Part shown: positions 5,815 to 55,981 of the stretch, one piece after another
How positions within the stretch are numbered: position 1 is the first letter of the stretch
How the letters are laid out: every line of letters starts with the position of its first letter
Origin: Heterodontus francisci
Lineage: Eukaryota
Direction: 5' to 3'
NCBI RefSeq assembly: GCF_036365525.1
Contig: NC_090404.1
Coordinates: 28,604,149 to 28,668,148, forward strand
Length of the DNA stretch: 64,000 nt
Program-made: the position numbers and the translations under genes
The notes under the pieces: generated by a model
Databases searched by the model: none
What the model saw: only the letters and a program-made list of their open reading frames with translations
What the model was told of the DNA's origin: nothing

Positions 5815-8800
5815 AGTTTTAAGGCACAACAAGAGGCCACTTGGCCCATCGTGTCTGTGCCGGCTGAAAAACGATCCAGCTATTCTAATCCCACCTTCCA
5901 GCATTTGGTCCGTAGCCCTGCAGATTAAGGCACTTGAGATGCATATACAGACTCCTTTTGAATGAGATGAGGGTTTCTACCCCAACTACCCTTTCAGGCA
6001 GTGAGTTCCAGATGCTCACCACCCTCTGGGTGAAAAAGCTTTTCCTCATCTCCCTGCCAATCTTTCCACCAATCACTTTAAATCTCTGCCCCCTAGTCAC
6101 TGACCTCTCTGCTCAGGTGAACAGGCCCTTCACCTCCACCCTATTCACGTCCTCAAAATTTTGTACATTTCAATCAGATTTCCTTCAGCTTTCTCTCTTC
6201 CAAGAACAACCCCAGCCTATCCAATCTCTCCTCATAGTGGCATTTTTCCAGTCCTGGCAACATCCTCGTAAATCTCCTCTGTACCCTCTCGAGTGCAATT
6301 CCATCTTTTCTGAGATTAAGTGACCAGAACTGCACACAGTACTCAAGTTGTGGCCTAACCAATGATTTATACAGTTCCAGCATAACCTCCCTGCCCTTAC
6401 ATTCTATATCTCGGCTAATAAAGGAAAGGATTCCATATGCCCTTTTAACCACCTTATCGACTTGTCCTGCTACCATCAGGGATGTGTGAACATTCACCCC
6501 AAGGTCCCTTACTTCCTATACACTTCTCAGTATTTTCCCATTAACCATGAATTCCTTCGTCTTGTTTGACCTCCCCAACTGCATCACCTCACACTTCTCC
6601 AGGTTAAATTCCATTTGCCACTTTTTTGCCCATCTGATCAGACTATCAATATCTTCCTGCAGCCTACAGCTATCCTCCTCGCTATCTACCACACGGCCAA
6701 TCTTTGTGTCAGCCGCAAAGTTCTTAATCATGCCCTCCACATTTACGTCCAAATCATTTATACCACAAGAAGCAGGGGACCCAGTACTGAGCCCTGCACA
6801 ACGCCACTGGAAACAGCCCTCCAGTCGCTAAAACACCCGTCAACAATTACCCTTTGTTTTCTGCCACTGAGCCAATTTTGTATCCACCTTGCTGCATTTC
6901 CCTGGATCCCATGGGATTTTATTTTGTTAACCAGTCTGCCATGTGGGACCTAGTCAAAATCCTTGCTAAAATCTATGTAGACCACATCGACTGCACTACC
7001 CTCATCTATCTTCCTTGCTACTTCTTCAAAAAATTTGATCAAGTTGGTCAAACAAGATCTTCCCTTAACAAATCCATGCTGACTATCCTTGATTAACCTG
7101 TGCCTTTCTAAGTGACAGTTTATCCTGTCTCTCAGAATAGATTCCAATAATTTTCCCACTACTGAGCTTAGACTGCCTGGCCTGTAATTACTCGGTCTAT
7201 CCCTTGCTCCCTTTTTAAACAGAGGTTGAACATTAGCAATTCTCCAACCCTCTGGCACCACACCTGTATCCAGTGAGGACTGGAAAATGATGGACAGACC
7301 CTCTGCTATTTCCTCTCTTGCGTCGTTTAACAGCCTGGGGTACATTACATCCGGCCCTGGTGATTTACCAACTTTCAAGGATGCTGATCCCATTAATACT
7401 TCCTCTCTCCCTATGTTTATCACATCCAATACTTCACACTCTCCTCCTTAACTACAATACCTGCATCGTCCCCCTCTTTTGTGCAGACAGACGCAAAGTA
7501 TTCATTAAGAACAATACCAACATCTTCCGCCCCTAAACATAGGTTACCTTTTTGGTCTTTTATGGCCCGACTCTCTCCTTATTTATCCTCTTACTCGATG
7601 TATTGATAAAACATCTTTGGGTTCACCTTGATTTTGCTTGCCAAAATTCTTTCATGCCCTCTCTTTCCTTACCTAATTTCCTTTTTGATTTCACCCCTCC
7701 ATTTTCTATACTCCTCTCGGCTTTCTGTAGTATTGAGTTGTTGGTGTCACACATAAGCTTTCCTTTCTGCCTTATCTTACCACGTAAGCTCCTTGACATC
7801 CATGGGGCTCTAGATATGGCTGTTCCACCCTTTTTCTTTTTGGGAACATGTTTACTCTGAACCGCTTTGAATGCCTCCCAGTGCTCTGACACAGAGTTAC
7901 CTTCAAGTAGCTGTTTCCAGTCCATTTTCACTAAATCACTCCTCAGTTTCGTAAAATTTGCCTTCCCCCAATTTAGAACTTTACTCCTGTTCTATCTTTG
8001 TCCTTGTCCAGAATAACACTAAAACTATTATGGTCACTATCTCCAAAATGGTCACCCATTACTTCATCCACTCGCCCAGCTTCATTACCAAAAACGAAAT
8101 CGAGAATTGTGTCCCCTCTCGTTGGGCTTGTTTCGTGCTGGCTAAAAAAATTCTCTTGAATGCAGTTCAAGAATTTTATGCCCTTGTGCCCTTCACACTG
8201 TTTGTATCCCAGTTGATATTGGGGTAGTTGAAATCCTCAACTAATATTGTCCTATAGTTTTTGCACTCAGAAATTTGCCTACATATTTGTTCTTTTATCT
8301 CCCTCTCACTATTTGGGGGTAGTGTGGCTACCCCTTTTTTATTTCTGAGCTCCACCCATATAGGCCTCGTTTGATGATTTGTTTAGCAAATCATCCCTCC
8401 TCACAGCTGTTATTGATTCCTTAACTAATAATGCTGCACCCCTTCCTTTTCTTTCCCCCTTTCTATCCTGCCTGAAAACTCTATACTCCGGGATGTTGAG
8501 CTGCCATTCTTGCCCCTCTTTCAGCCAAGTTTCCATTATAGTAATGATATTGTTTTACCACGTGTCTGACTGTGCCCTCAGCTCATCAGTTTTATTTACT
8601 ATACCCCTTGCACTTAAATAAATACCCTTTCACACTGCCAAATTCCTGTGTTGCACACTTTTTAACCTTTGCTTCTTCTGTCTTTCAGAGTCACTCGCTA
8701 ATTTTCTGCTTCCCGTTCCCTGCCCTGAAATTGTCCAATCTAAGACTGCGCTCAGGTTCCCAACCTCCTGCCAGGCTAGTTTAAACCATCCCCAACAGCA

Positions 8801-18420: not shown

Positions 18421-19794
18421 CTACTTGTGAACTCGCTGGTGTATCAGCAAATTGGATGACCGAGTGAATCCCTTCCCACACTCTGAGCAGGTGAACGGCC
18501 TCTCCCCAGTGTGAACTCGCTGGTGTGTCAGAAGGCTGGATGACTGAGTAAATCCCTTCCCACACTCTGAGCAGGTGAACGGCCTCTCCCCAGTATGAAC
18601 TCGCTGGTGTGTTAGAAGGCTGGATGACTGAGAGAATCCCTTCCCACACTCTGAGCAGGTGAACGGCCTCGCCCCAGTGTGAACTCGCTGGTGTATCAGC
18701 AGGTTGGATGACTGCGTGAATCCCTTCCCACACTCTGAGCAGGTGAATGGCCTCTCCCTGTTGTGAACTCGCTGGTGCTTCAGTAGGAGGGATGAAGTAG
18801 TGAATCGCTTCCCACACTCGGAGCAGGTGAATTGCCTCTCCCTGGTGTGAACTCGCTGGTGAGTCAGATGATGGGATGACTGAGTGAATCCCTTCCCACA
18901 CTTGGAGCAGGTGAACGGCCTCTCCCCAGTGTGAATGCGCTGGTGTTCAGTGAGATCAGATGATCGCTTGAACCCAGTCCCACAGTGAGAACACCTGAAT
19001 GGTCTCTCATCAGTGTGAACACGTTGATGGGTCATCAGTTCGGCAGAACTTTTATAGCAACTCCCACAATTTCGACATTTAAAAGGTCTCTCATCAGTGT
19101 GAACTCTCTGGTGTGTCAGCAGGTGGGATGACTGAGTGAATCCCTTCCCACACTTGGAGCAGGTGAATGGCCTCTCCCCAGTGTGAATTCGCTGGTGTGT
19201 CAGACGATTGGATGAAGTCGTGAATCCTTTCCCACACACGGAGCAGGTGAATGGCCTCTCCCCAGTGTGAACTCGCTGGTGTGTCAGCAGGGCAGATGGA
19301 TGAGTGAATCCCTTTCCACACTCAGAGCATGTGAATGGCCTCTCCCCAGTGTGAGTGCGTTGGTGTACAATCAGGTTGCCTGATTGTCTGAACCCAGCCC
19401 CACAGTGAGAACACCTGAATGGTCTCTCGTCAGTGTGAGCACGTTGATGGATTATCAGTTCAGTGGAACTTTTATAGCAATTCCCACAGTCTGGACATTT
19501 AAACGGCTTTTCCCCATTGTAAACTCGCTGGTGTGTCAGCTGGCTGGATGATTGAGTGAATCCTTTCCCAGACTCAGAGCAGGTAAACAGACTTTCCGGG
19601 GTGTGACTGCGTGGATGAGTTTCCAGCTCAACTGGATAATTCAATCCCTTTCCACAGTCCCCATATTTACATGGTTTCTTCCCAGTGTGACTGCACTTGT
19701 GATTCAACAGGCCAGATGATCGGCTGAAACCTTGCCCACACACACAACATGTGTACAGTTTCTCTCCACTGTGAACAGTGCTTTTTCCTTCCAT
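18421..19794 (-). CDS. C2H2 tandem zinc-finger protein, 16 finger units (14 with intact C2H2 ligands), no KRAB/SCAN visible
   Basis: Uninterrupted ORF of CxxC-x12-HxxxH repeats with TGERP linkers. ATG at 19794 ([12 protein letters not shown]). Putative splice acceptor TTTCACAG|G ends at ~19901. Confidence 0.9.
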
Positions 19795-27499: not shown

Positions 27500-29270
27500 A
27501 ACTGGGTCCTAGTGCCCAGGAGATGGAGCAGTCTGGACAACAGGGTTTTAAATAGCTTCACCCTCTCCCAGGCTGCCTGTGATGTTTGCAGCTCAGAGGA
27601 GTTCATCGGCCATGTATATATTCAGTGTGAGAGGTTACAGTCCCTGAATAGTTACCTGAAGGGGCTGCTCCTCAACTTAGAATCATAGAAATTTACAGCA
27701 TGGAAGGAGGCCATTCGGCCCATCGTGTTCGCACTGGTCGACAAGGAGGCATCCAGCCTAATCCCACTTTCCAGCTCTTGGTCCATAGCCTTGTAGGTTC
27801 GGGCACTTCACGTGCATATCAAAAGTACTTTTTAAATGTTATGAGGGTTTCTGCCTTTATCAACCTCCCAGGCAGTGAGTTCCAGATCCTCACCATCCTC
27901 TGGGTGTAAACCTGCTACCTCTTACTCTAAATCTATTCCCCCAGTTCTCAAACCCTCACCCAAGGGGAATAGGTCCTTTCTATCCACTCTAGATAGACCC
28001 CTCATAATTTTATACACTTCAATTCAATCTACCCTCAGCCTCCTCTGTTCCAGAGAAAACAGTCCTAACCTATCCAATCTTTCCTCATAAATTCTCCAAT
28101 CCAGGCAACAGCCTTGTAAATCTCCTCTGTACCCTCTTGAGTGCAACCACATCTTTCCTATAGTGCAGTACCCAGAAATGCACACAGTATCCAGTTGTGG
28201 CCTCACCAGTGTTTTAAACAGTTCCAGCATAACCTCCCTGCTCTTATATTCTCTACCTTGGCTAATAAAGGCAAGTATCACATATGTCTTCCTAACCATC
28301 TTATCTACCTGTCCAGCTAGCTTCAGGGATCTGTGGACATGCACACCAAGGCCCCTCTGTTCCTTTATACTTCTCAGTATCCTACCATCTTTTGTGTATT
28401 CCCTTGCCTTGTTAGCTGTCTCCAAATACATTACCTCACACTTCTCCAGATTGAATTCCATTTGCCACTGTTCTGCCCACCTGACCAGTCCATTGATATC
28501 TTCCTGCAATCTACAGCTTTCTTCTTCATTATCAATCATACGGTCAATGTTTGTATTATCTGCAAACTTCTTAATCAAACCCCTTACATTCAAGAGCAAA
28601 TCACTGATATATACACACAAAAAGCAAGGGACCAAGTACTGATCCATGTAGAACTGAAAACAGCCTCCAGTCACAAAAACACCATCAACCATTACCCTTT
28701 GCTTCCTGCCTCAGAGACAATTTTGGCTCCAATTTGCCATTTTGCCTTGGATCCCATAGGCTTTTACTTTCGTGAGCAGTCTGTCATGTGACCCCTTATT
28801 ATTAGCCTTGGTTACAGTTTAGCCTCATTCTCCTAATCTCTGGCCACTCGGTATGGAGGGGGGGTGGGTAAGAATCTTCTCCTGGACCTGGTTAAAACAC
28901 CCCCCACCTCCACAGCCCTTTCACCGACCTCCTCTTCCCAAACCCCCCAGTCCCCGCAATGCCCTGCTCTCCCTCACCTCACCCACTCCAAACCCACCCA
29001 GTCCCCGCAATGCCCTGCTCTCCCTCACCTCACCCACTCCAAACCCACCCAGGTTTGTATCTGTCTTATATATTTAAACACTCAGTTCTCACCTTCTCCA
29101 TCTCTCTCTCTCCCTCTCGCTCAGGCTGAGAAACAATGTTTAGGTCCAGGATGTACAGGGACCATGTTGGGAGTGGGGGTGTCACTTTAGCTGCTGCCCT
29201 GTCTTCTGTGATCTTGTCCGTGCCGGGGTGGCCTTCTGCAACCGGTGGACACCTCAGGATACAGAGTGTC
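27500..29270 (+). mobile_element. Old L1-Tx1 3'-end relic split by a minus-strand CR1 (27678-28810) and a tandem repeat
   Basis: NRVLNSFTLSQAACDVCSSEEFIGHVYIQCERLQSLNSYLKGLLLN aligns with the young Tx1 C-terminus (NRLLSRFTDSQAACTFCGLDESVFHVYTECARLQPLFEYLKGLLLK). It resumes as WLQFSLILLISGH at ~28808. Confidence 0.8.
28940..29051. repeat. ~51-bp tandem duplication
   Basis: CCCAGTCCCCGCAATGCCCTGCTCTCCCTCACCTCACCCACTCCAAACCCA occurs twice. Confidence 0.9.
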
Positions 29271-34820: not shown

Positions 34821-35301
34821 TCTTTTAATGTCAGAAATACGGCAGGAAAATTGCACACAGCAAAGTCCCACAAACAGAAAGGAGGCTATGACCACTTAGT
34901 GACGTTGATTGATGGATAAATATTGACAGCACCGGGGAGAACATCCCTGCTCTTCAAAATAACTGTAGGGGATCGTTTACGTCCATCTGAGAAGACAGAT
35001 GGGGTCTTGGTTGAAGGTGTCATCTGAAAGACGGGACCTCTGACAGTGCAGCACCCCCTCAGTACTGCATTGGAATATCAGCCTAGATTTTGTTCTCTGG
35101 TCTCTGGATGTGGATTTGAACCCACAACCCACTGACTTAGAGATGAGAGTGCAAGCACCGAGCCATGACTTAACACCTCATCATTACTATTTCAGTTCTC
35201 AGACCTTCAGTTACTCTGACAGACAAGCCCCAGCTCCCCATATGTTGCAGAGTGCCTCTCTGAGTCTTTTTTCCCGGGGAAGGTATCGGTAACATGCCTG
35301 T

Positions 35302-35368
35302 GTCCCTGCCCAGGGAGTGTTTTTTGGGACAGTGTGTAGAGGGAACTTTACTCTGTATCTAACCCTGT
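35302..35368. repeat. ~65-bp repeat unit, left flank of the Tx1 insertion
   Basis: CCTGCCCAGGGAGTGTTTTTTGGGACAGTGTGTAGAGGGAACTTTACTCTGTATCTAACCCTG is homologous to 41947-42010. Confidence 0.8.
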
Positions 35369-35512
35369 TTTTTTTTTTCTTTTTTGTGGCCTTTATACCC
35401 CAGGCCCCTTTTATATATTTTATGTCGAGGGGGCCTTTATTCCTCAGGCCCCCTTTATATACACACTTATATTTTTTAAATAATTTTATTAAAAACAGAA
35501 ATAAACAAAAAC

Positions 35513-38500
35513 TCAAATTAAAATGCCATTTTCGGCGTCGACAATGCACTCCAGTCCCTGCGGTGCCCACCGGTCGCGGAAGGCCTCAAGCGTACCGGCG
35601 GACACCGCATGCTCCTTCTCCAGGGACACCCGGGCACGAACGTAACCGTGGAAGAGGGGCAGGCAATCGGGGAGGACGGAACCCCTGACGGCCCGCAACC
35701 TGGACCTGTGAATTGCCACCTTGGCCAGGCCCAGGAGCAGACCGACGAGGAGATCCTCCTCCCGGCCCAAGCACCTCCGCACTGGGTGCCCAAAGATCAG
35801 GAGCGTGGGACTGAAGTGCAGCCAGAATTTGAGGAGCAGCCCCTTCAGATACTCAAAGAGGGGCTGCAACCTCGCACACTCCGTGTAAACGTGGAACACG
35901 GACTCGTCCAGGCCGCAGAAAGTACAGGCGGCCTGGGAGTCCGTGAACCGACTTAAAAGTCTATTGCACGGGACTGCTCTGTGCAGCACCCTCCACCCCA
36001 GGTCCCCGATGTAAAGGAGACCTCCATCGGGGTTTCCCCTCGCCGCCAGATGGCAACGCGGACCGCCAGGACGTGTCCGGCCAGCTGACGAGGGCGAGGA
36101 AGTGGAGAGTGTGCAGGAGCAGCCCGTACGGGAAACCGCTCCGCGCCGATTGGAATGGCACGGAGGGCATTTCCGAGAGGCGGCTCGGGTTGTGCGGGAC
36201 CGGCTCCCGAGGAGGGTTTCGGGGCCTGGGTCCGATGAGCAGTTCCGGCCGAGCGGGTGTCAGCTCGGCCGGGATCGCTCCGCACTCCCGAGCCTCCTCG
36301 CCACCCGCAGTGAGGGGCGTCCCGGGGGTTTCAGCTACTCCTCCGCCCGCCGGACCGTCCCCGGAGTCGGCCGCCCGGACAGCCGAGGCGCTCTCCTCCG
36401 CCGGTGGGGGAGCGCCCTGACTGGAGGCGACCATGTTCCAGACTCGGAAAAGATCCCGGTAAAAGACAGGCAACTCCCTCAGAGAGGCGCGGCTAACGGA
36501 CTCCACCGGGAGCTGCGTGTCGTCTTGAAGGCAGTGACACTGGCGGAAAAAATATGTCGCCAGCGCACACCATCTGGGAGAACGCTCGACGTGCAAGTAT
36601 CTCTGCAGGGTCCGAAGGCGGAGAGTCGCAGCCTGGGTGCGGACGCACACCAGCGACTGACCGCCCTCCTCGATCGGGAGACTCAGGACCGCGGCAGAGA
36701 CCCAGTGTTTCCTCTTGCCCCAGAAGAAATCGACGAGTTTCTTCTGGATCTTGGTGGCAAATACAGGGGGCGGGGCCAAAGTGACCAACCGGTACCACAA
36801 CATGGAGGCCACCAGTTGGTTTATGACCAACGCTCGGCCCCTGTAGGAAAGCACTCGGAGCAATCCTGTCCAGCGCCCCAGCCGAGCGGTGACTTTCGCC
36901 TCCAACTCCTGCCAGTTTGCCGGCCAGGCTTCCTCAGCGGGGCTCACGTGGACTCCCAGATAGAGGTGCGTGGTGCTCCACGCAAAAGGTGTCATTTCCT
37001 CCGGCAGGGAGTCCACCCGCCACTGACCAACCAGGAGTCCGGAACATTTCTCCCAATTGATCCTCGCGGAGGACGCGGCAGAAAAGGTCTGCTGGCAGTC
37101 GCGCATCCTCCGCAAGTCAACAGGATCTGTGATTGCGAGGAGCACGTCGTCAGCGTAAGCCGAGAGGATGACCCGCATGGCCGGCTCGCGCAGAGCCAAT
37201 CCCGTCAATCTCCGGCGAAGCAGGCACAGGAAGGGCTCCACGCAGATGGTATACAATTGGCCGGACATGGGGCATCCCTGACGCTCTCCTCTCCCAAAGC
37301 GAAGAGGCGCCGTCAAGGACCCGTTAACTTTGACTGGACACTCTGCGGCAGCGTATAAAAGTCGGACCCGGGCCACAAAATACGGCCCGAGTCCGAAAGC
37401 GCGCAGAGTCCCGAAAAGGTAATCGTGATCCACCCTGTCGAACGCCTTCTCCTGATCGAGGGAGAGAAAGGCGACCGACTGACCAGTCCTCTGGGAAAGA
37501 TGGATCAGGTCCCGGACCAGATGGATGTTGTCCTGGATGGACCGACCCGGGACCGTGCAGGACTGGTCGGGGTGGATCATGTGGGCCAGCACATAGCCCG
37601 GGCAAAGATCTTATAATCCGTGCTGAGGAGGGAGACCGGACGCCAGTTTTTAAGCAGGCGGAGATCGCCCCTCTTCGGCAGCAGGACGATGATCGCCCTG
37701 CGCCACGAGAGGGGCATCTCCCCGGTCGCCAGGCTTTCCCCCAGGACCCGCGCGTAATTGTCCCCCAGGACGTCCCAGAACGCCCTGAGGAACTCCACGG
37801 TCAACCCATCCAGCCCTGGGGATTTGCCCCTCGAGAGCTGGTGGAGGGCGCCAGTCAGCTGCGCCAACGTGAGCGGAGCCTCCAATCCTTCGGCGCCCTC
37901 CGGGCTGACCTGCGGCAGATCCTCCCACAAAACTCTGCGCGCATCCTTGCTGGACAGATCCTGAGAGAACAACGCACTGTAATAAGTACGGACCAGGAGG
38001 CCCATTCCCTCCGGATCCGTGATGGAGGATCCGTCGTCGGCCAGCAGCTCAACGAGCTGCTTACGGACCCCCCCGCCATTTTTCCAGCGAGTAGAAGAAG
38101 GGTGAGGCGCGGTCCAAATCTTCCAGGATCTGGATCCGCGACCTCACGTACGCACCTCGGGACCCTATGAGCTGCAGGTCCCTCAGCGCGCCCTTCTTCT
38201 CTTTGTACGCCTGCCACAGGGCCGGGTCCACAACGGCATGACCGAGGCGGGACTCCAAGTCGAGCACCTCCCTCTCAAGGCGCCCGATCTCAGCTTCCCG
38301 CCTCTTGGTCGACCCCTTCGCGTACTCCTGACAGAAGACGCGGATGTGAGTCCTGCCCACATCCCACCATAGCCTCAAGGAGGGGAAGGCCCCCTGCTTC
38401 CTTCTCCAGTCGGCCCAGAATCGACAGAACGAGTCCCGAAATCGCACGTCCTCCAGCAGCCGGTTGTTAAAGTGCCAGTATGCGGACCCCGCCCGCGTGC

Positions 38501-39214
38501 GGAGCGGAGTGAACTCCGCCCACACCAGGTGTTGGTCCGAGCACGGCACCAGCCACACGGAGGCCGCCAAGACGCGGGAGACGTACGCCTGCGAAATGTA
38601 GAGGCGGTCGATTCGCGACCCCCCTCCTCCAGACCTCCACGTGAAGGCGCTGGAGTCGGGATGGAGATTCCGCCAGACGTCCACCAAGTTAAGGGAGCTG
38701 ATCAGTCCCCTCAACTTCTCCACCAACGCTTGGCCGCGCTGGGGACCGGAGCGATCCCCCCCCCCCCCCAGAGCGTGCAGTTCAAATCCCCCCCGAGGAT
38801 GATGCACTCGCCGCTATCAATGGAGCTCAAGAGAGCGGACACTTCTTCAAAGAAGCGCGCTTGCAACGCACTGGGCCTGGGCGCGTACACGTTCACAAAG
38901 TGGAGCGGCACGCTACCCAGGCGAACGGCGAGGTGGAGCAAGCGGCCCGGCACTAGCTCCTTGACCCCCAAGATCTCCGGCTGAAAAGTCGGGGCCAACA
39001 AGATAGCCACCCTACTAGAAATAGGGGTGAGGTGACTCATGTAGACCCCACCCTGCCACTCCAGGAGCCAGGTGGCTTCGTCTCCCGGAACGGTGTGGGT
39101 TTCCTGCAGAAAGCACACCGCGTATCTCCCTTCCCTAAGGACTGAGAGATTGTGAAATCTGCAGTGAGCCCCTCTGCTGCCGTTGATGTTGAGGCTGGCT
39201 ATGGTTATCTTCAT
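35513..39214 (-). pseudogene. Tx1 ORF2 (APE endonuclease, RT, C-terminal zinc-binding domain), frameshifted
   Basis: SLNING/LQETH, RIDRLY/SDQH, NWRPVSLL, DQEKAFD, QGCPMS, YADD and CTFC...H...C motifs spread over five ORFs. Frame breaks near 38760, 38070, 37590 and 35990. Confidence 0.92.
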
Positions 39215-39246
39215 GTCAAAGGTACTTCAAACCCGTCACAAACACC

Positions 39247-41289
39247 TCACTGTGAGGAGGGAGTGGAAGTGCACCTGGCCCTCCACTCCCCCAGCAACCC
39301 ATTGAGGAACACATTAAAACGGCACCTCTCAACCAGTTTCACGTCCGCGCACTTGCCCGCTATCTTAAGGGCGGCACGGACGGACTGTATGATCAGCGCC
39401 AGATTTGACCAACGGTCGAGGGCCAGCTGAACTTTATTGTGGCAACCCCTGCAAGCCGCGAGGAAATCCCGGAGTTCCGCCGTGGGGATGAGAGGAGATT
39501 CGGTGGGAGGCACAAGGGACTCCACCACCTCACTGGCGATGGAATCAAGGTCATCCTCCGTGCCCAACACCGAATCCCCATCCTCCTCCGGGTCGTCACC
39601 GCCAGCGGCCGACACATCCACCACACACTGTGGGGCAGACGTCCCGGCCGCTCCAGCTGGTCCTGCCTCTGTCATGATCCCACCCCCAGGATCGATGGCG
39701 GAGGAGTCCTCTCTGGGTTCTATTATGAAACTGGAGCCTGTGGGCGCCAGCAGTTCAGGAACCCCCTCCACCTCTGCCCCCCGGCCAATGTGTGGTCCAG
39801 GGGAGACAGAAGTTCTCGACTCCGGAAATCCAACCGGAGCCGAGACGGGAGGTGGAGGGAGGAGGCTATCTCCCGCTCCGCCAGCACCCACAGGCCCAGC
39901 AGATGGGGTAGCATTCTCAGTTTTCACCAGGTCGGGTGTCTCCTGGTTGGTGGTGGACTCCGGCTGGGAGGGCTGGCCCTCTGGGGCGTCGCCCTCCCCT
40001 TCATTTAGGGCATCCGACCCAGTAGCAGTGGCGGAATGGGCGGCTTCACCAGGCTCCCCCACCACAAGCAGGGCCCCACTTACTCCTTCAGGAGGGGCCT
40101 CATGTACCGGGGCCGTCCCCTCCCCTCCATCCTGAGGAATAGGGAGCGCCTGCCCGGACTTTGTAGCCTTGGTGTTGGCGGTCGGGGGAACCTGAGGACC
40201 AGAAACAGGAGACAGCTCCCCTCCAACAGATGGGCCCTGCACCTCAGGGCCCTGTGTTATTTCTGTGGAGGGGTGCCTTCTCCTCTTTTTCGCACTTGGG
40301 CGCGGAGACTCAGAGACCTCCATGTCATCAGAGGCCTCCGCCTCCACACCCTTTTTTTCCTTTCTTGTCACCCTCGGCCTGAGCCCAGCCCTGGGACAGG
40401 TGGATTCCATGGGAATGGGCTTTGGGCTGAGCTCAGGCTTGGGTTCAGTCAAAGTGTCCAGGGGACGCGCCTCATGATGTTTCCTTTTTCCCCGCGTCTT
40501 CCTTCCGCTCGGACGGACGCTCCCCTCCCCGCCGGAGGCTGTGAAAACCACAGCCTCCGGAACCGACTGAGCGGTGTCTATTGGATGTGTTGGGGGAGTG
40601 GGAGGAGGTGCTGTGGAACCACTCTGGGCCGCCGAGGTGGAGCTGGCGGCCGGGAGGTTGGGGCAGTTCTTACGAACATGCCCCACCCCCTTGCAGACGT
40701 GGCACCGCGCCCCGTCCGAGGTCCAAAAGACGCGGTAGGCCGTCCCCTGGAACTCCACATTAAATTGGCCCTCCGTGTCCTCCTCCCGCGCCAGCTGCAT
40801 AAATAACTGGCGGCGGAAGGAGTGGACATGTTGGAGGCTGTGCTCCCGAAGACCAAGCCGGACTGGGGTGATCCCCGACCTCACCTCCCCCAGATGGTGC
40901 AGGTGGGGGAGGAGGAGCTCACTGGGAATGAAGGGTGGGACGTTGGACAACATTATCCGATGCGCAGTGGCCCCCAGAGGGTCCACTGGCAGGAAGGTCC
41001 CCCCCACAGTGAGCCCTTTACTCAGGGCCAGGGACACCGCCCGCTCGGTCTTCAAAAAGAACACAGCCTTCCCATACATCTTTGAGGCCGCAACAATGGC
41101 CGAGGGGCCGACAACCACGGCCATTGCCTTAACGCAGGCCTCAATAGACATGTTGGGGTGGGGATAGCTCTTCACCCCATGGCTGCATGTCAACAATTTA
41201 AAGGGTGACGGGGCCACGTGGGCAGCCACTGAAGCTGCAGCTGCGTAGGTAGTAGAGGGCCCCGCCACCGGTGATGAGGGGCTTGCCAT
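39247..41289 (-). CDS. Tx1 ORF1 protein, intact (680 aa), with CCHC zinc knuckle and long disordered region
   Basis: AASKMYGKAVFFL and LSNVPPFI N-terminal motifs, and a CHVCKGVGHVRKNC knuckle. Confidence 0.9.
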   Translation of the reverse strand: MASPSSPVAGPSTTYAAAASVAAHVAPSPFKLLTCSHGVKSYPHPNMSIEACVKAMAVVVGPSAIVAASKMYGKAVFFLKTERAVSLALSKGLTVGGTFLPVDPLGATAHRIMLSNVPPFIPSELLLPHLHHLGEVRSGITPVRLGLREHSLQHVHSFRRQLFMQLAREEDTEGQFNVEFQGTAYRVFWTSDGARCHVCKGVGHVRKNCPNLPAASSTSAAQSGSTAPPPTPPTHPIDTAQSVPEAVVFTASGGEGSVRPSGRKTRGKRKHHEARPLDTLTEPKPELSPKPIPMESTCPRAGLRPRVTRKEKKGVEAEASDDMEVSESPRPSAKKRRRHPSTEITQGPEVQGPSVGGELSPVSGPQVPPTANTKATKSGQALPIPQDGGEGTAPVHEAPPEGVSGALLVVGEPGEAAHSATATGSDALNEGEGDAPEGQPSQPESTTNQETPDLVKTENATPSAGPVGAGGAGDSLLPPPPVSAPVGFPESRTSVSPGPHIGRGAEVEGVPELLAPTGSSFIIEPREDSSAIDPGGGIMTEAGPAGAAGTSAPQCVVDVSAAGGDDPEEDGDSVLGTEDDLDSIASEVVESLVPPTESPLIPTAELRDFLAACRGCHNKVQLALDRWSNLALIIQSVRAALKIAGKCADVKLVERCRFNVFLNGLLGEWRARCTSTPSSQ

Positions 41290-41946
41290 GATCTAAGAGC
41301 TAAACCCACCCCAAATTGTGGACTTGCACACCAAATATCAGCGATTCACCAAAAATATTGAATGTGGATTAAAACAAAGCAAACAAACAACAGGTTAGTG
41401 GAGAGGCTGAGGTAATAGAGGAGAGGCAAAGGCAGGCTGTATGGGATGACTTGCTTTCTGGAGGTGGTGCTCACAGTACACTTAAAACAGTCTTTGAAGT
41501 TGGTCTTCCAGTCTTCTGGTTGGGGGAGAGTCTTCACCTGGGTCAGCTGAAGCTGCCCAGGCACTATCTATCCCCTTCCGTCTGTTTAGCTGGGCAGCTT
41601 CAGCTGACCCAGGCTTGGCAATTGGGGTGGGGAGGGAGCTTTCCTGTGTGCTTTTGCAGCAGCACAGATTCCTGTTGAATTGGCAGCCCCACCCCTTGTT
41701 GTTCCAGCCACTTGTTCCTCCCCCAACAGTCCAAAGTAAATTACTTGTGTTCAGCACCCACCTCCAGACAAAGCCTTGTTTCCAAAAAAAAATGTCTCTT
41801 CTCTTTAATGGAGACTGTTGTTGAAGTTTCACCTCTGCTTAGTTGTAGCTGCTCTCCCTTGCTCAGTGTAGCTCCTCTCTCCACCTCTGCAACCTCCAAC
41901 TGCCACCAGCACTCTCAGCTGAGGCTCGTTGCTGCAATAAGCAGTC

Positions 41947-42010
41947 AACCCCCGTGCGTTACCTGTCCTGGGAGTGTTTACAGGGACAGTGTAGCGGGAA
42001 CTTTACTCTG
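41947..42010. repeat. ~65-bp repeat unit, right flank of the Tx1 insertion
   Basis: AACCCCCGTGCGTTACCTGTCCTGGGAGTGTTTACAGGGACAGTGTAGCGGGAACTTTACTCTG. Confidence 0.8.
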
Positions 42011-43099: not shown

Positions 43100-43500
43100 T
43101 GTTTGGGAAATGGATCATCCCCGACAACCGGGTTTTAAGCAGCTTCACCCACTCCCAGACTCTATGTGATGTTTGCAGCCTAGAGGAGTCCATGGGCCAT
43201 GTAGCTATTCAGTGTGAGAGGTTACAGTCCCTGAGGGGCTGCTCCTCAACTTTCAGTTCCAGTTTAGTCTCACTCTCCCAATCGTTGGTCTCTGGGTGTG
43301 GAGGGGGTGTGGGTAGGTTAGAGGACCTGCTCGTAGACCTGGTTATTGCAGCGATGTGTAGGTCCAGGATGTGCTGGGACCACGCTGTGGGTGGGGGAGT
43401 CACTCTGGCTGCCAGCCTCTCTTCCGTGGTCTTGTCTGTGCCCGGGTGGCCCTGGAGAGGGAGCACACTTAATATCTTCTGTGCCCAGTGAGCACCTCAG
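43100..43500 (+). mobile_element. Old L1-Tx1 3'-end relic (unit P5), not interrupted by CR1
   Basis: NRVLSSFTHSQTLCDVCSLEESMGHVAIQCERLQSL and EDLLVDLV in ORF 43060..43491. Confidence 0.8.
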
Positions 43501-44199: not shown

Positions 44200-44898
44200 G
44201 GTATTAGAAGGGGAGAATTTACAGACTGGAAACTCAAACCAAAAAACATCACATCAGGACCTGACAGCCACTCGATTCATCAGGTCCTGAATATCATCGG
44301 CCTTTGAATGTGGAAGGAGAAATGTTTGTCTGTTCTGTCTGTGGGAAAAGATTTCAAACATCAGTGTGACTGGAAAAGCACCGAGACACACACACACCCG
44401 AGTGAGTGTGTTCCAGTGACTGACTGTGGAAAGAGCTTTAACCAGTTACACAGCCTGAAACAACATCACACCATTCACAATGGGGAGAAACTGTACACGT
44501 GTTCTGTGTGTGGACGAGGCTTCAACTGATCATCCAACCTGGAGAGACACAAGGACACCCACACCACGGAGAAACCGTGGAAATGTGGAGACTGTGGGAA
44601 GGGATTCAGTTACCCATCAGAACTGGAAATTCATGGCGCACTCACACTGGGGAGAGGCCGTTCACCTGCTCCATGTGTGGAAAGGGATTCACTCGGTCAT
44701 CAACCTGCTGACTAACATATTCAGACGGGTGAGAGGCCATTCACCTGCACTGAGTGTAGGAACAGATTCACTCAGTTATCCAACCTGCTGGCACACCAGC
44801 AAGTTCACACTGGGGAGAGGTCGTTCACGTGCACCATGTGTGCGAAGAGATTCACTCAGTCTGCCAAACTCCTGACACACCAGCGAGTTCACAAGTGA
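44200..44898 (+). pseudogene. ZNF pseudogene (unit P5)
   Basis: Acceptor CTTTTACAG|, VLEGENLQ leader and about 7 fingers with TGA stops (44367, 44527) and frameshifts. Ends HQRVHK*. Confidence 0.85.
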
Positions 44899-55363: not shown

Positions 55364-55981
55364 TTATTTGTGAACTCCCTGGTGTTTCAGAAGGTTGGAT
55401 GACTGAGTGAATTCCTTCCCACACTCTGAGCAAGTGAACGCCCTCTCCTCTGTGTGAACTTGCTGGTGTCTCAGCAGGGTGGATGAGTGAATGAAGTTCT
55501 TCCCAGAATCGGAGTAGGTGAACGGCCTCTCCCCAGTGTGAACTCGCTGGTGTACAATGAGTTCAGATGATCGCTTGAACCCAGTCCCGCAGTGAGAACA
55601 CCTTAACGATCTCTCGTCAGTGTGAACACGTTGATGGATTATCAGTTTGGCCGAACATTTACAGCAATTCCCACAGTCTGGACAAGGTCTCTCCCCAATG
55701 TGAACTCGCTGGTGTGTCAGCAGGTCGGATGTTTGAGTGAATCTCTTCCCACACTCAGAGCAGGTGAATGGCCTCTCCAGGGTGTGACTGCATGGATGAG
55801 TTTCCAGCTCAACTGGATAATTCAATCCCTTTCCACAGTCCCCATATTTACATGGTTTCTTCCCAGTGCGACTGCAATTGTGATGCGACAGGCCCGATGA
55901 TCGGCTGAAACCTTGTCCACACACAGAACACGTGTGCAGTTTCTCCCCAATGCGCTCGGTGCTTTTTCCTTTCACGTTCAA
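55364..55981 (-). pseudogene. C2H2 ZNF paralog of 18421-19794; 7 finger units, open frame but start ATG changed to GTG; probable pseudogene
   Basis: Same N-terminal fingers ([30 protein letters not shown]), same acceptor (~56085) and homologous 3' UTR. Three fingers are degenerate. Confidence 0.75.

Follow-up and report, generated by a model that had tools for sequence, protein, structure and literature searches.

We analysed a stretch of 64,000 nucleotides from the genome of the shark Heterodontus francisci (contig NC_090404.1, positions 28,604,149 to 28,668,148; hereafter the window), which contains a 6.6-kb long interspersed nuclear element (LINE) of the Tx1 clade between units of a minisatellite. 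Our results point, with a probability that we put at roughly 0.7, to a LINE of the Tx1L lineage of which about every second copy occupies one phase and one orientation of this 68-bp minisatellite, and which brings repeat units to new sites enclosed in the target-site duplications made there, likely through read-through of its RNA into the repeat (i.e. 3' transduction). The preference for the repeat is strong, phase-fixed and strand-fixed, but partial. This bears on the open question of how target choice is gained, loosened and changed in site-specific retrotransposons: the shark family appears to be caught half-way, with about half of its copies on target, a shortened recognition loop and several open copies left.

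The target minisatellite

The target is a minisatellite with a period of 67-72 bp (mode 68 bp, in place of the ~65 bp first estimated from the window) that forms head-to-tail arrays at many loci. In the 6.0-Gb genome we counted 38,412 exact matches to a 14-mer of the unit, compared with 41 to the reversed control. These figures confirm the abundance of the repeat that had been stated in an earlier reading of the window from its sequence alone (hereafter the sequence-only reading). Copies of the unit account for about 0.04-0.09% of genomic DNA, and because this share is so small, a chance landing of the window element in the repeat is excluded. On the three largest contigs (C1-C3), the minisatellite places listed are short arrays clustered near the contig ends.

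The target core contains the telomeric heptamer CTAACCC. Telomere targeting was considered and rejected, since a search for the telomere repeat followed by T8 returned 0 matches, which is weak evidence because assemblies often lack telomeres. The minisatellite array of locus L104 gave nothing at the Rfam gathering score, and its interpretation as a small RNA gene or a short interspersed nuclear element (SINE) was likewise rejected, as no Rfam family matched.

The unit is also present in sequence runs X8, X9, X17 and X20 (organisms B, C, D and F). Contigs of organisms B and C cross from the unit through a T-run (i.e. the poly(A) tail read on the opposite strand) into the element 3' end; organisms D and F contain mostly a related element carrying a different 3' untranslated region (UTR). 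Two further array structures were observed. At L101 (G000:C1:9.68 Mb), a ~46-bp block of unit piece plus T-run has been amplified to a new tandem array, and this block is a retrotransposition scar turned satellite variant. Within the array at L104 (G000:C1:9.776 Mb), an inverted unit is joined to an inverted piece resembling the element 5' tip.

Distribution and phase of element copies

An exact 22-mer of the element 3' end occurs 1,709 times in the genome, and all 90 occurrences on C1-C3 were taken as a census, selected blind to the flank and classified by hand. Forty-nine of the 90 ends are on target at a single phase and orientation, 40 lie elsewhere and one (L211) is unclear; these counts include some on-target assignments made from the 3' flank alone, landings in the tip junction of an earlier copy (scored as on target) and stacked copies that are not fully independent. 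By chance ~0.003 of the 90 would be expected on target, so the enrichment is ~17,000-fold, or 8,000-fold when calculated from the local density of the repeat. Both the unit enrichment and the fixed insertion phase that the sequence-only reading named as tests of a target-specific element are thus found. Its claim of specificity holds for the fixed phase, the fixed orientation and the ~10^4-fold enrichment, but has to be weakened to target preference: the share of copies flanked by one repeat (49/90) lies above the >20% used by Kojima (2015), whereas stringent specificity would place nearly all copies in the target and 40/90 are elsewhere.

The census divides by region, with 49 of 55 ends on target inside repeat-dense clusters and 0 of 35 outside them. 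Among the 39 best-matching copies besides that of the window, ranked by identity with a flank-free query, 32 are on target, 5 are off target and 2 are unclear. The same junction recurs genome-wide: six T follow within 1-5 nt after the unit at the insertion phase in 5,352 of 22,082 units, compared with 8 at a control phase (forward strand only, as reverse matches are multiply counted), and TCTAACC plus a T-run stands immediately ahead of the 3'-end 22-mer in 916 matches, a few of them double.

Truncated copies with different break points (L053, L054, L058, L062, L065, L205, L242, L258 and L260) rejoin the unit in phase, with duplications of about 7-13 bp. These in-phase 5' junctions did not arise by carriage in the RNA, because 5' break points cannot travel in RNA. 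The target site outlasts the insertion, and elements stack head to tail. Outside the minisatellite, one old interspersed-repeat site was struck by three copies, each truncated at a different point (L060, L166 and L256); the site has CTAAC..TG..GTACCT in common with the target. The first two positions of off-target sites are T in 20/25 and G in 15/25, these being raw counts from hand-picked sites in which T is confounded with the tail.

Non-element sequences with T-runs also occur at the same repeat phase (L100 at G000:C1:2.405 Mb, L102, L104 and L121), one of them with AATAAA ~18 nt ahead of its tail. Their probable origin is cellular poly(A) RNA that was copied there in trans. Separately, 13 of 30 fetched places repeat one element 5' end, one unit and an identical far flank. 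They lie on unplaced contigs (L080-L082, L086-L091, L093, L094, L098 and L099), and this recurring locus belongs to a large amplified block.

Repeat DNA carried to off-target sites

Nineteen of the 40 off-target copies adjoin repeat DNA that lies between two T-runs and within the 11-16 bp duplication of the new site. Aligning the sequence beyond the poly(A), which the sequence-only reading had put forward as a check, therefore overcounts specificity, as these copies bear repeat DNA of their own beside the tail; counts based on poly(A) flanks call for general caution on this account.

An automated duplication test covered 37 loci, i.e. 35 census loci located beyond the clusters or on their margins (on-target L189 included) together with L195 and L196, which entered via an empty-site pattern. 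Duplications of at least 11 bp were found in 23 of the 37 true flank pairs and in 2 of 1,332 mismatched pairs. Repeat DNA is enclosed in 15 of these 23 duplications (one encloses 11 nt only); at L169, L172, L183, L186, L195 and L196 the enclosed DNA amounts to between one and ~8 complete units (~8 at L196). On-target junctions carry like chains of unit piece plus T-run, and at L045, L046, L047, L057 and L064 the chains include 25-190 nt of another element's 5' tip.

The junction chains and the enclosed units are as expected of read-through from a donor within an array or an element stack. The element thus exports its own target, likely by 3' transduction. The end point of the 3' UTR ahead of the tail differs between copies, and these variable ends, past two predicted hairpins with AATAAA-like loops, would fit loose 3' end formation.

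The 5' tip and copy length

Full-length copies terminate in an element-borne mimic of the target. We compared 37 distinct full tips that are followed by a unit with 157 native junctions; the native units of any one array are not independent. An AAT-type core before the cut is found in 27/37 tips and 2/157 native junctions (a count taken from the 14 most frequent cores listed), and a core ending in CAG in 26/37 and 9/157, respectively; the tip core tracks the 5' subfamily. The second base beyond the cut is G in 36/37 tips and 107/157 native junctions (P=5e-4 at the per-locus mean), and position +12 shows no significant difference between tips and native junctions. Because both the tip core and the second base differ from native junctions, the mimic is element-encoded and extends at least two bases beyond the cut. 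The apparent duplication of full-length copies is thus in part element-borne. The idea that these copies carry a whole upstream unit was rejected, since the first unit past the tip varies within one subfamily and only the core and position +2 depart from native junctions. We also observed several distinct 5' UTR subfamilies on one common body, and one or two CCAAT-box-like words directed towards the repeat in most 5' tips.

Copy length differs between the two classes of site. Copies that are at least 5 kb long or have a tip make up 24/49 on target and 0/40 off target (P=2e-8, or P=6e-7 with L239 scored long). This suggests that long copies are on target because their tip would pair with the cut target, which is the simplest reading; selection is its rival.

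Element family, open copies and endonuclease loop

The second open reading frame (ORF2) is open at L044 and encodes 1,245 aa with an N-terminal APE endonuclease (Pfam PF03372) and a reverse transcriptase (RT; PF00078); its best PDB matches are L1 ORF2 structures. It shares 54% identity over 948 aa with Xenopus Tx1L, the closest protein bearing an element name, and 91% identity with a protein labelled Heterodontus francisci. In an IQ-TREE analysis of 36 rows chosen out of 121 proteins (midpoint root only), the RT pairs with a stingray protein and falls in a clade with Tx1L, turtles and sturgeon that is supported at 100/100. The assignment to the Tx1 clade is thereby upheld. The names Keno, Dewa, Kibi and Koshi are absent from the 120 protein matches listed, and the tree lacks those elements. 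Tx1-clade elements have a separate ORF1 with a CCHC knuckle and an ORF2 with a C-terminal CCHC; both are present in the shark element. Its copies have poly(A) tails, 5' truncations and target-site duplications, and no long terminal repeats (LTRs).

Both ORFs are open in 7 of the 29 loci checked (L197, L209, L245, L247, L248, L251 and L255), and therefore the family is likely still active, or was so until recently. The bB6-bB5 loop of the endonuclease consists of 7 glycine-rich residues in 18 of the 19 genomic copies read and of 8 in one, compared with 11 residues in those frog, turtle, sturgeon and teleost relatives in which the pattern could be matched. According to the accessible text of PMC1950540, this loop is tied to target reading and has 11 residues in Tx1L.

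Proposed mechanism and alternative explanations

In the mechanism that we propose, (i) the ORF2 endonuclease would nick, with relaxed stringency, the C-rich strand between ...TATCTAACCCCG and TGCTGTACC; (ii) the freed end at the nick would prime on the poly(A); (iii) the tip mimic of full-length copies would pair with the cut target and aid completion of integration; and (iv) weak 3' end formation would delay polyadenylation, so that transcripts extend for 10-600 nt into the repeat downstream or into the 5' tip of the next element. Such run-on would give the recurring junctions of unit piece plus T-run and, off target, new small arrays. We infer that recognition is endonuclease-led with relaxed stringency because one look-alike site was hit three times independently, and because of the described behaviour of Tx1L.

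Several observations weigh against this mechanism. Not only are 40/90 copies off target, but at most of their sites the sequence upstream of the cut bears little resemblance to the repeat. A loop of 7 glycine-rich residues may mean that the endonuclease discriminates poorly. For two transduced cargos no donor locus was found among the 40 candidates scored for each, which returned own sites and generic repeat matches only. L189 would fit as a seeded array that was hit again, but its outer duplication was not found.

Homology might guide insertion instead, which we consider unlikely. In this case a nearly unselective endonuclease would cut the DNA, and the RNA or cDNA ends would pair with the repeat (through 3' read-through and the 5' mimic), perhaps helped by co-transcription of the array. 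The short, glycine-rich loop, the mimic borne by the element and the frequency of read-through-type cargo agree with this idea, as does the reported requirement of R1Bm RNA for downstream target sequence (PMC7265360, accessible part). However, the on-target T-run lies exactly at the phase, so that poly(A) priming appears to take place at a fixed cut. Truncated copies that lack the mimic are equally in phase, and the look-alike site struck three times belongs to an unrelated repeat.

It is quite unlikely that the pattern reflects survival and not insertion, with long copies purged outside arrays and multiplied inside them by array recombination. This would explain the difference in copy length and some of the enrichment, and amplification does occur, both of one locus at no fewer than 13 unplaced places and of the blocks of unit piece plus T-run at L101. 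Survival cannot, however, produce a single phase and orientation, and on-target copies vary in 5' subfamily and break point.

The cargo alone could be explained by template switching, in which nascent cDNA jumps to repeat DNA or RNA so that no donor read-through is needed. The two cargos for which a donor was not found would fit, as would the unit pieces that often begin at T-containing positions beside the T-run. We regard this as improbable, since the cargo is always downstream-oriented and ends at the phase, with a second T-run as its border. It may also hold non-repeat flank (L195 and L169) or the next element's 5' tip (the five junction chains mentioned above), as read-through RNA would.

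Strict sequence specificity in the manner of Tx1L or Keno would account for the identity-ranked copies (32/39 on target, 5 off and 2 unclear) and for the 49/55 ends on target inside repeat-dense clusters. It is very improbable, and is refuted for the family as a whole, by the copies outside clusters: all 35 are off target, and many of them have inserted into unrelated DNA with a clean duplication. It would be tenable only if the proteins of another LINE had mobilised the off-target copies in trans. Pure hitchhiking, in which the unit is merely part of the element tail and targeting is absent, would explain the 19/40 off-target copies with repeat DNA enclosed by their duplication but is hardly credible, as independently truncated 5' break points, which are not RNA-borne, rejoin the repeat in phase and on-target copies are flanked by native arrays without an outer T-run.

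Under relaxed endonuclease-led insertion with read-through, a further step can be put forward tentatively. The element and the minisatellite might form a self-feeding pair, in which the element exports arrays and the arrays grow and are re-hit; much of the dispersed shark minisatellite would have been founded in this way, and the mimic 5' tip would tie fertile full-length insertions to the repeat. If true, even after its endonuclease had loosened, such an element would remain bound to a target of its own spreading.

The system offers a concrete route for a minisatellite to reach new chromosomal places, and makes the question of target gain, relaxation and switching testable with one enzyme and one 68-bp substrate. 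As a less stringent close relative of Tx1L, the shark element is also useful for comparison where the specificity of LINE endonucleases is to be engineered.

The element in the window

The coordinates of the window element and its flanks (Table 1), together with the alignment of the flanks, bear out the presence of a 6.6-kb Tx1 element between units of one repeat. The left and right flank units are 84% alike over the 51 nt compared, and both align at the same phase to a natural array elsewhere. The head-to-tail array suggested for this locus is supported in so far as the flanks are in phase with natural arrays; it comprises two units only, and TRF detects none. Joints matching the empty site of the window extend over just 20-29 letters per side and come from generic arrays, so that they carry no information on an orthologous empty site or on heterozygosity of the insertion. 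Likewise, the short imperfect duplication is recognisable, but the AAC of its right copy is also attributable to the element, which is ~20 nt short of the full tip.

Table 1. Features of the Tx1 element and its flanks, in window coordinates
Feature	Position	Strand	Remarks
Left minisatellite unit, diverged	35299..35367	+	Stops at insertion phase ...TATCTAACCCTG, T-run directly after
Left copy of short imperfect duplication	35361..35367	+	AACCCTG
Tx1 LINE	35368-41949	-	6,582 bp, tail included
Poly(A) tail	35368..35385	-	T-run on + strand
3' UTR	35386..35512	-	Two predicted GC hairpins, AATAAA/TATAAA-like signals in loops
ORF2 (APE endonuclease, RT, C-terminal CCHC)	35513..39214	-	Five pieces in different frames
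ORF1	39247..41289	-	Open, 680 aa, single CCHC knuckle at residue 196
5' UTR	41290..41949	-	~20 nt shorter than full tip of other copies
Right copy of imperfect duplication	41947..41954	+	AACCCCCG; AAC fits element sequence too
Right minisatellite unit, partial, diverged	41955..42010	+	Phase continues unchanged

Compared with an open natural copy, the ORF2 of the window aligns in five pieces at 91-97% identity, which amounts to four frame breaks. Because of these breaks the window copy is not among the youngest, and in a comparison with four full-length copies it reaches at most 96.2% identity across 6.5 kb; its description as a young element was thus overstated. A Pfam search with the window ORF1 returned no match. 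Elsewhere in the window there are 84-bp repeats of C2H2 zinc-finger type (18426-19584, 44642-44893 and 55369-55553), so that the insertion presumably lies within a zinc-finger gene cluster. Short pieces resembling the ORF2 end (27539-27679 and 43117-43233) and an RT-like piece (6791-7378) were also observed.

Comparison with known systems

Several Tx1-clade elements have repeated targets, i.e. Keno (U2 snRNA), Dewa (tRNA arrays), Kibi and Koshi (microsatellites) and Tx1-1_ACar (telomere repeats). The shark element differs from them in that its unit has no Rfam match and no T-run junction was found in telomere repeats. A telomere-specific Tx1 in the anole is cited in the accessible text of PMC10088271. 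Tx1L of Xenopus laevis (UniRef YTX2 entry, P0005) belongs to the same clade, and has the same endonuclease-RT-CCHC layout and a habit of inserting into another repeat. Published descriptions present it as a stringent element that targets the DNA transposon Tx1D (available parts of PMC1950540 and PMC4494074). By contrast, the shark element targets a 68-bp minisatellite, has 40/90 of its copies off target and has a loop of 7 residues instead of 11.

Partial preference is itself known. Tx1 families prefer transposons, LTR elements, microsatellites and satellites, with partial, position-fixed insertion and tandem stacking (PMC4494074, accessible text), and satellites are among the known Tx1 targets in the legend of its Fig. 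3. The families of Kojima (2015) (e.g. Tx1-Mar, Tx1-8_Crp, Tx1-4_AMi, Tx1-9_AMi and those marked 'Sat') resemble the shark element in partial repeat preference, fixed position and stacking, and differ in host and target. In the available text of PMC4494074, the word 'shark' is absent and target export by 3' transduction is not described. Shark genome papers report tandem repeats at chromosome ends or on the Y (10.1101/2022.10.17.512540 and PMC11406177, as far as their accessible text goes); the corresponding part of PMC11406177 contains no 'Tx1', and that of 10.1101/2022.10.17.512540 does not name the shark 68-bp repeat. Neither this element-minisatellite pair nor a LINE that exports its own minisatellite target was found in a literature search that left Repbase Reports and most subscription papers outside its reach, so that prior annotation is possible. 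The earlier statement that no such pair has been described thus stands for this particular pair; it does not extend to satellite-targeting Tx1 families, which are already in print (PMC4494074, accessible part).

Transport of downstream DNA has been reported for L1 and for the site-specific R1Bm and R7Ag (PMC7265360, available text), in which read-through RNA brings downstream DNA to a new site, much as we propose here. The shark cargo differs in two respects: it is a non-essential sequence that serves as the element's own target, and it is fixed in the genome, where it forms new arrays of up to ~8 units. There are precedents both for Tx1 families that target satellites and for 3' transduction; the dispersal of an element's own target goes beyond the known pattern.

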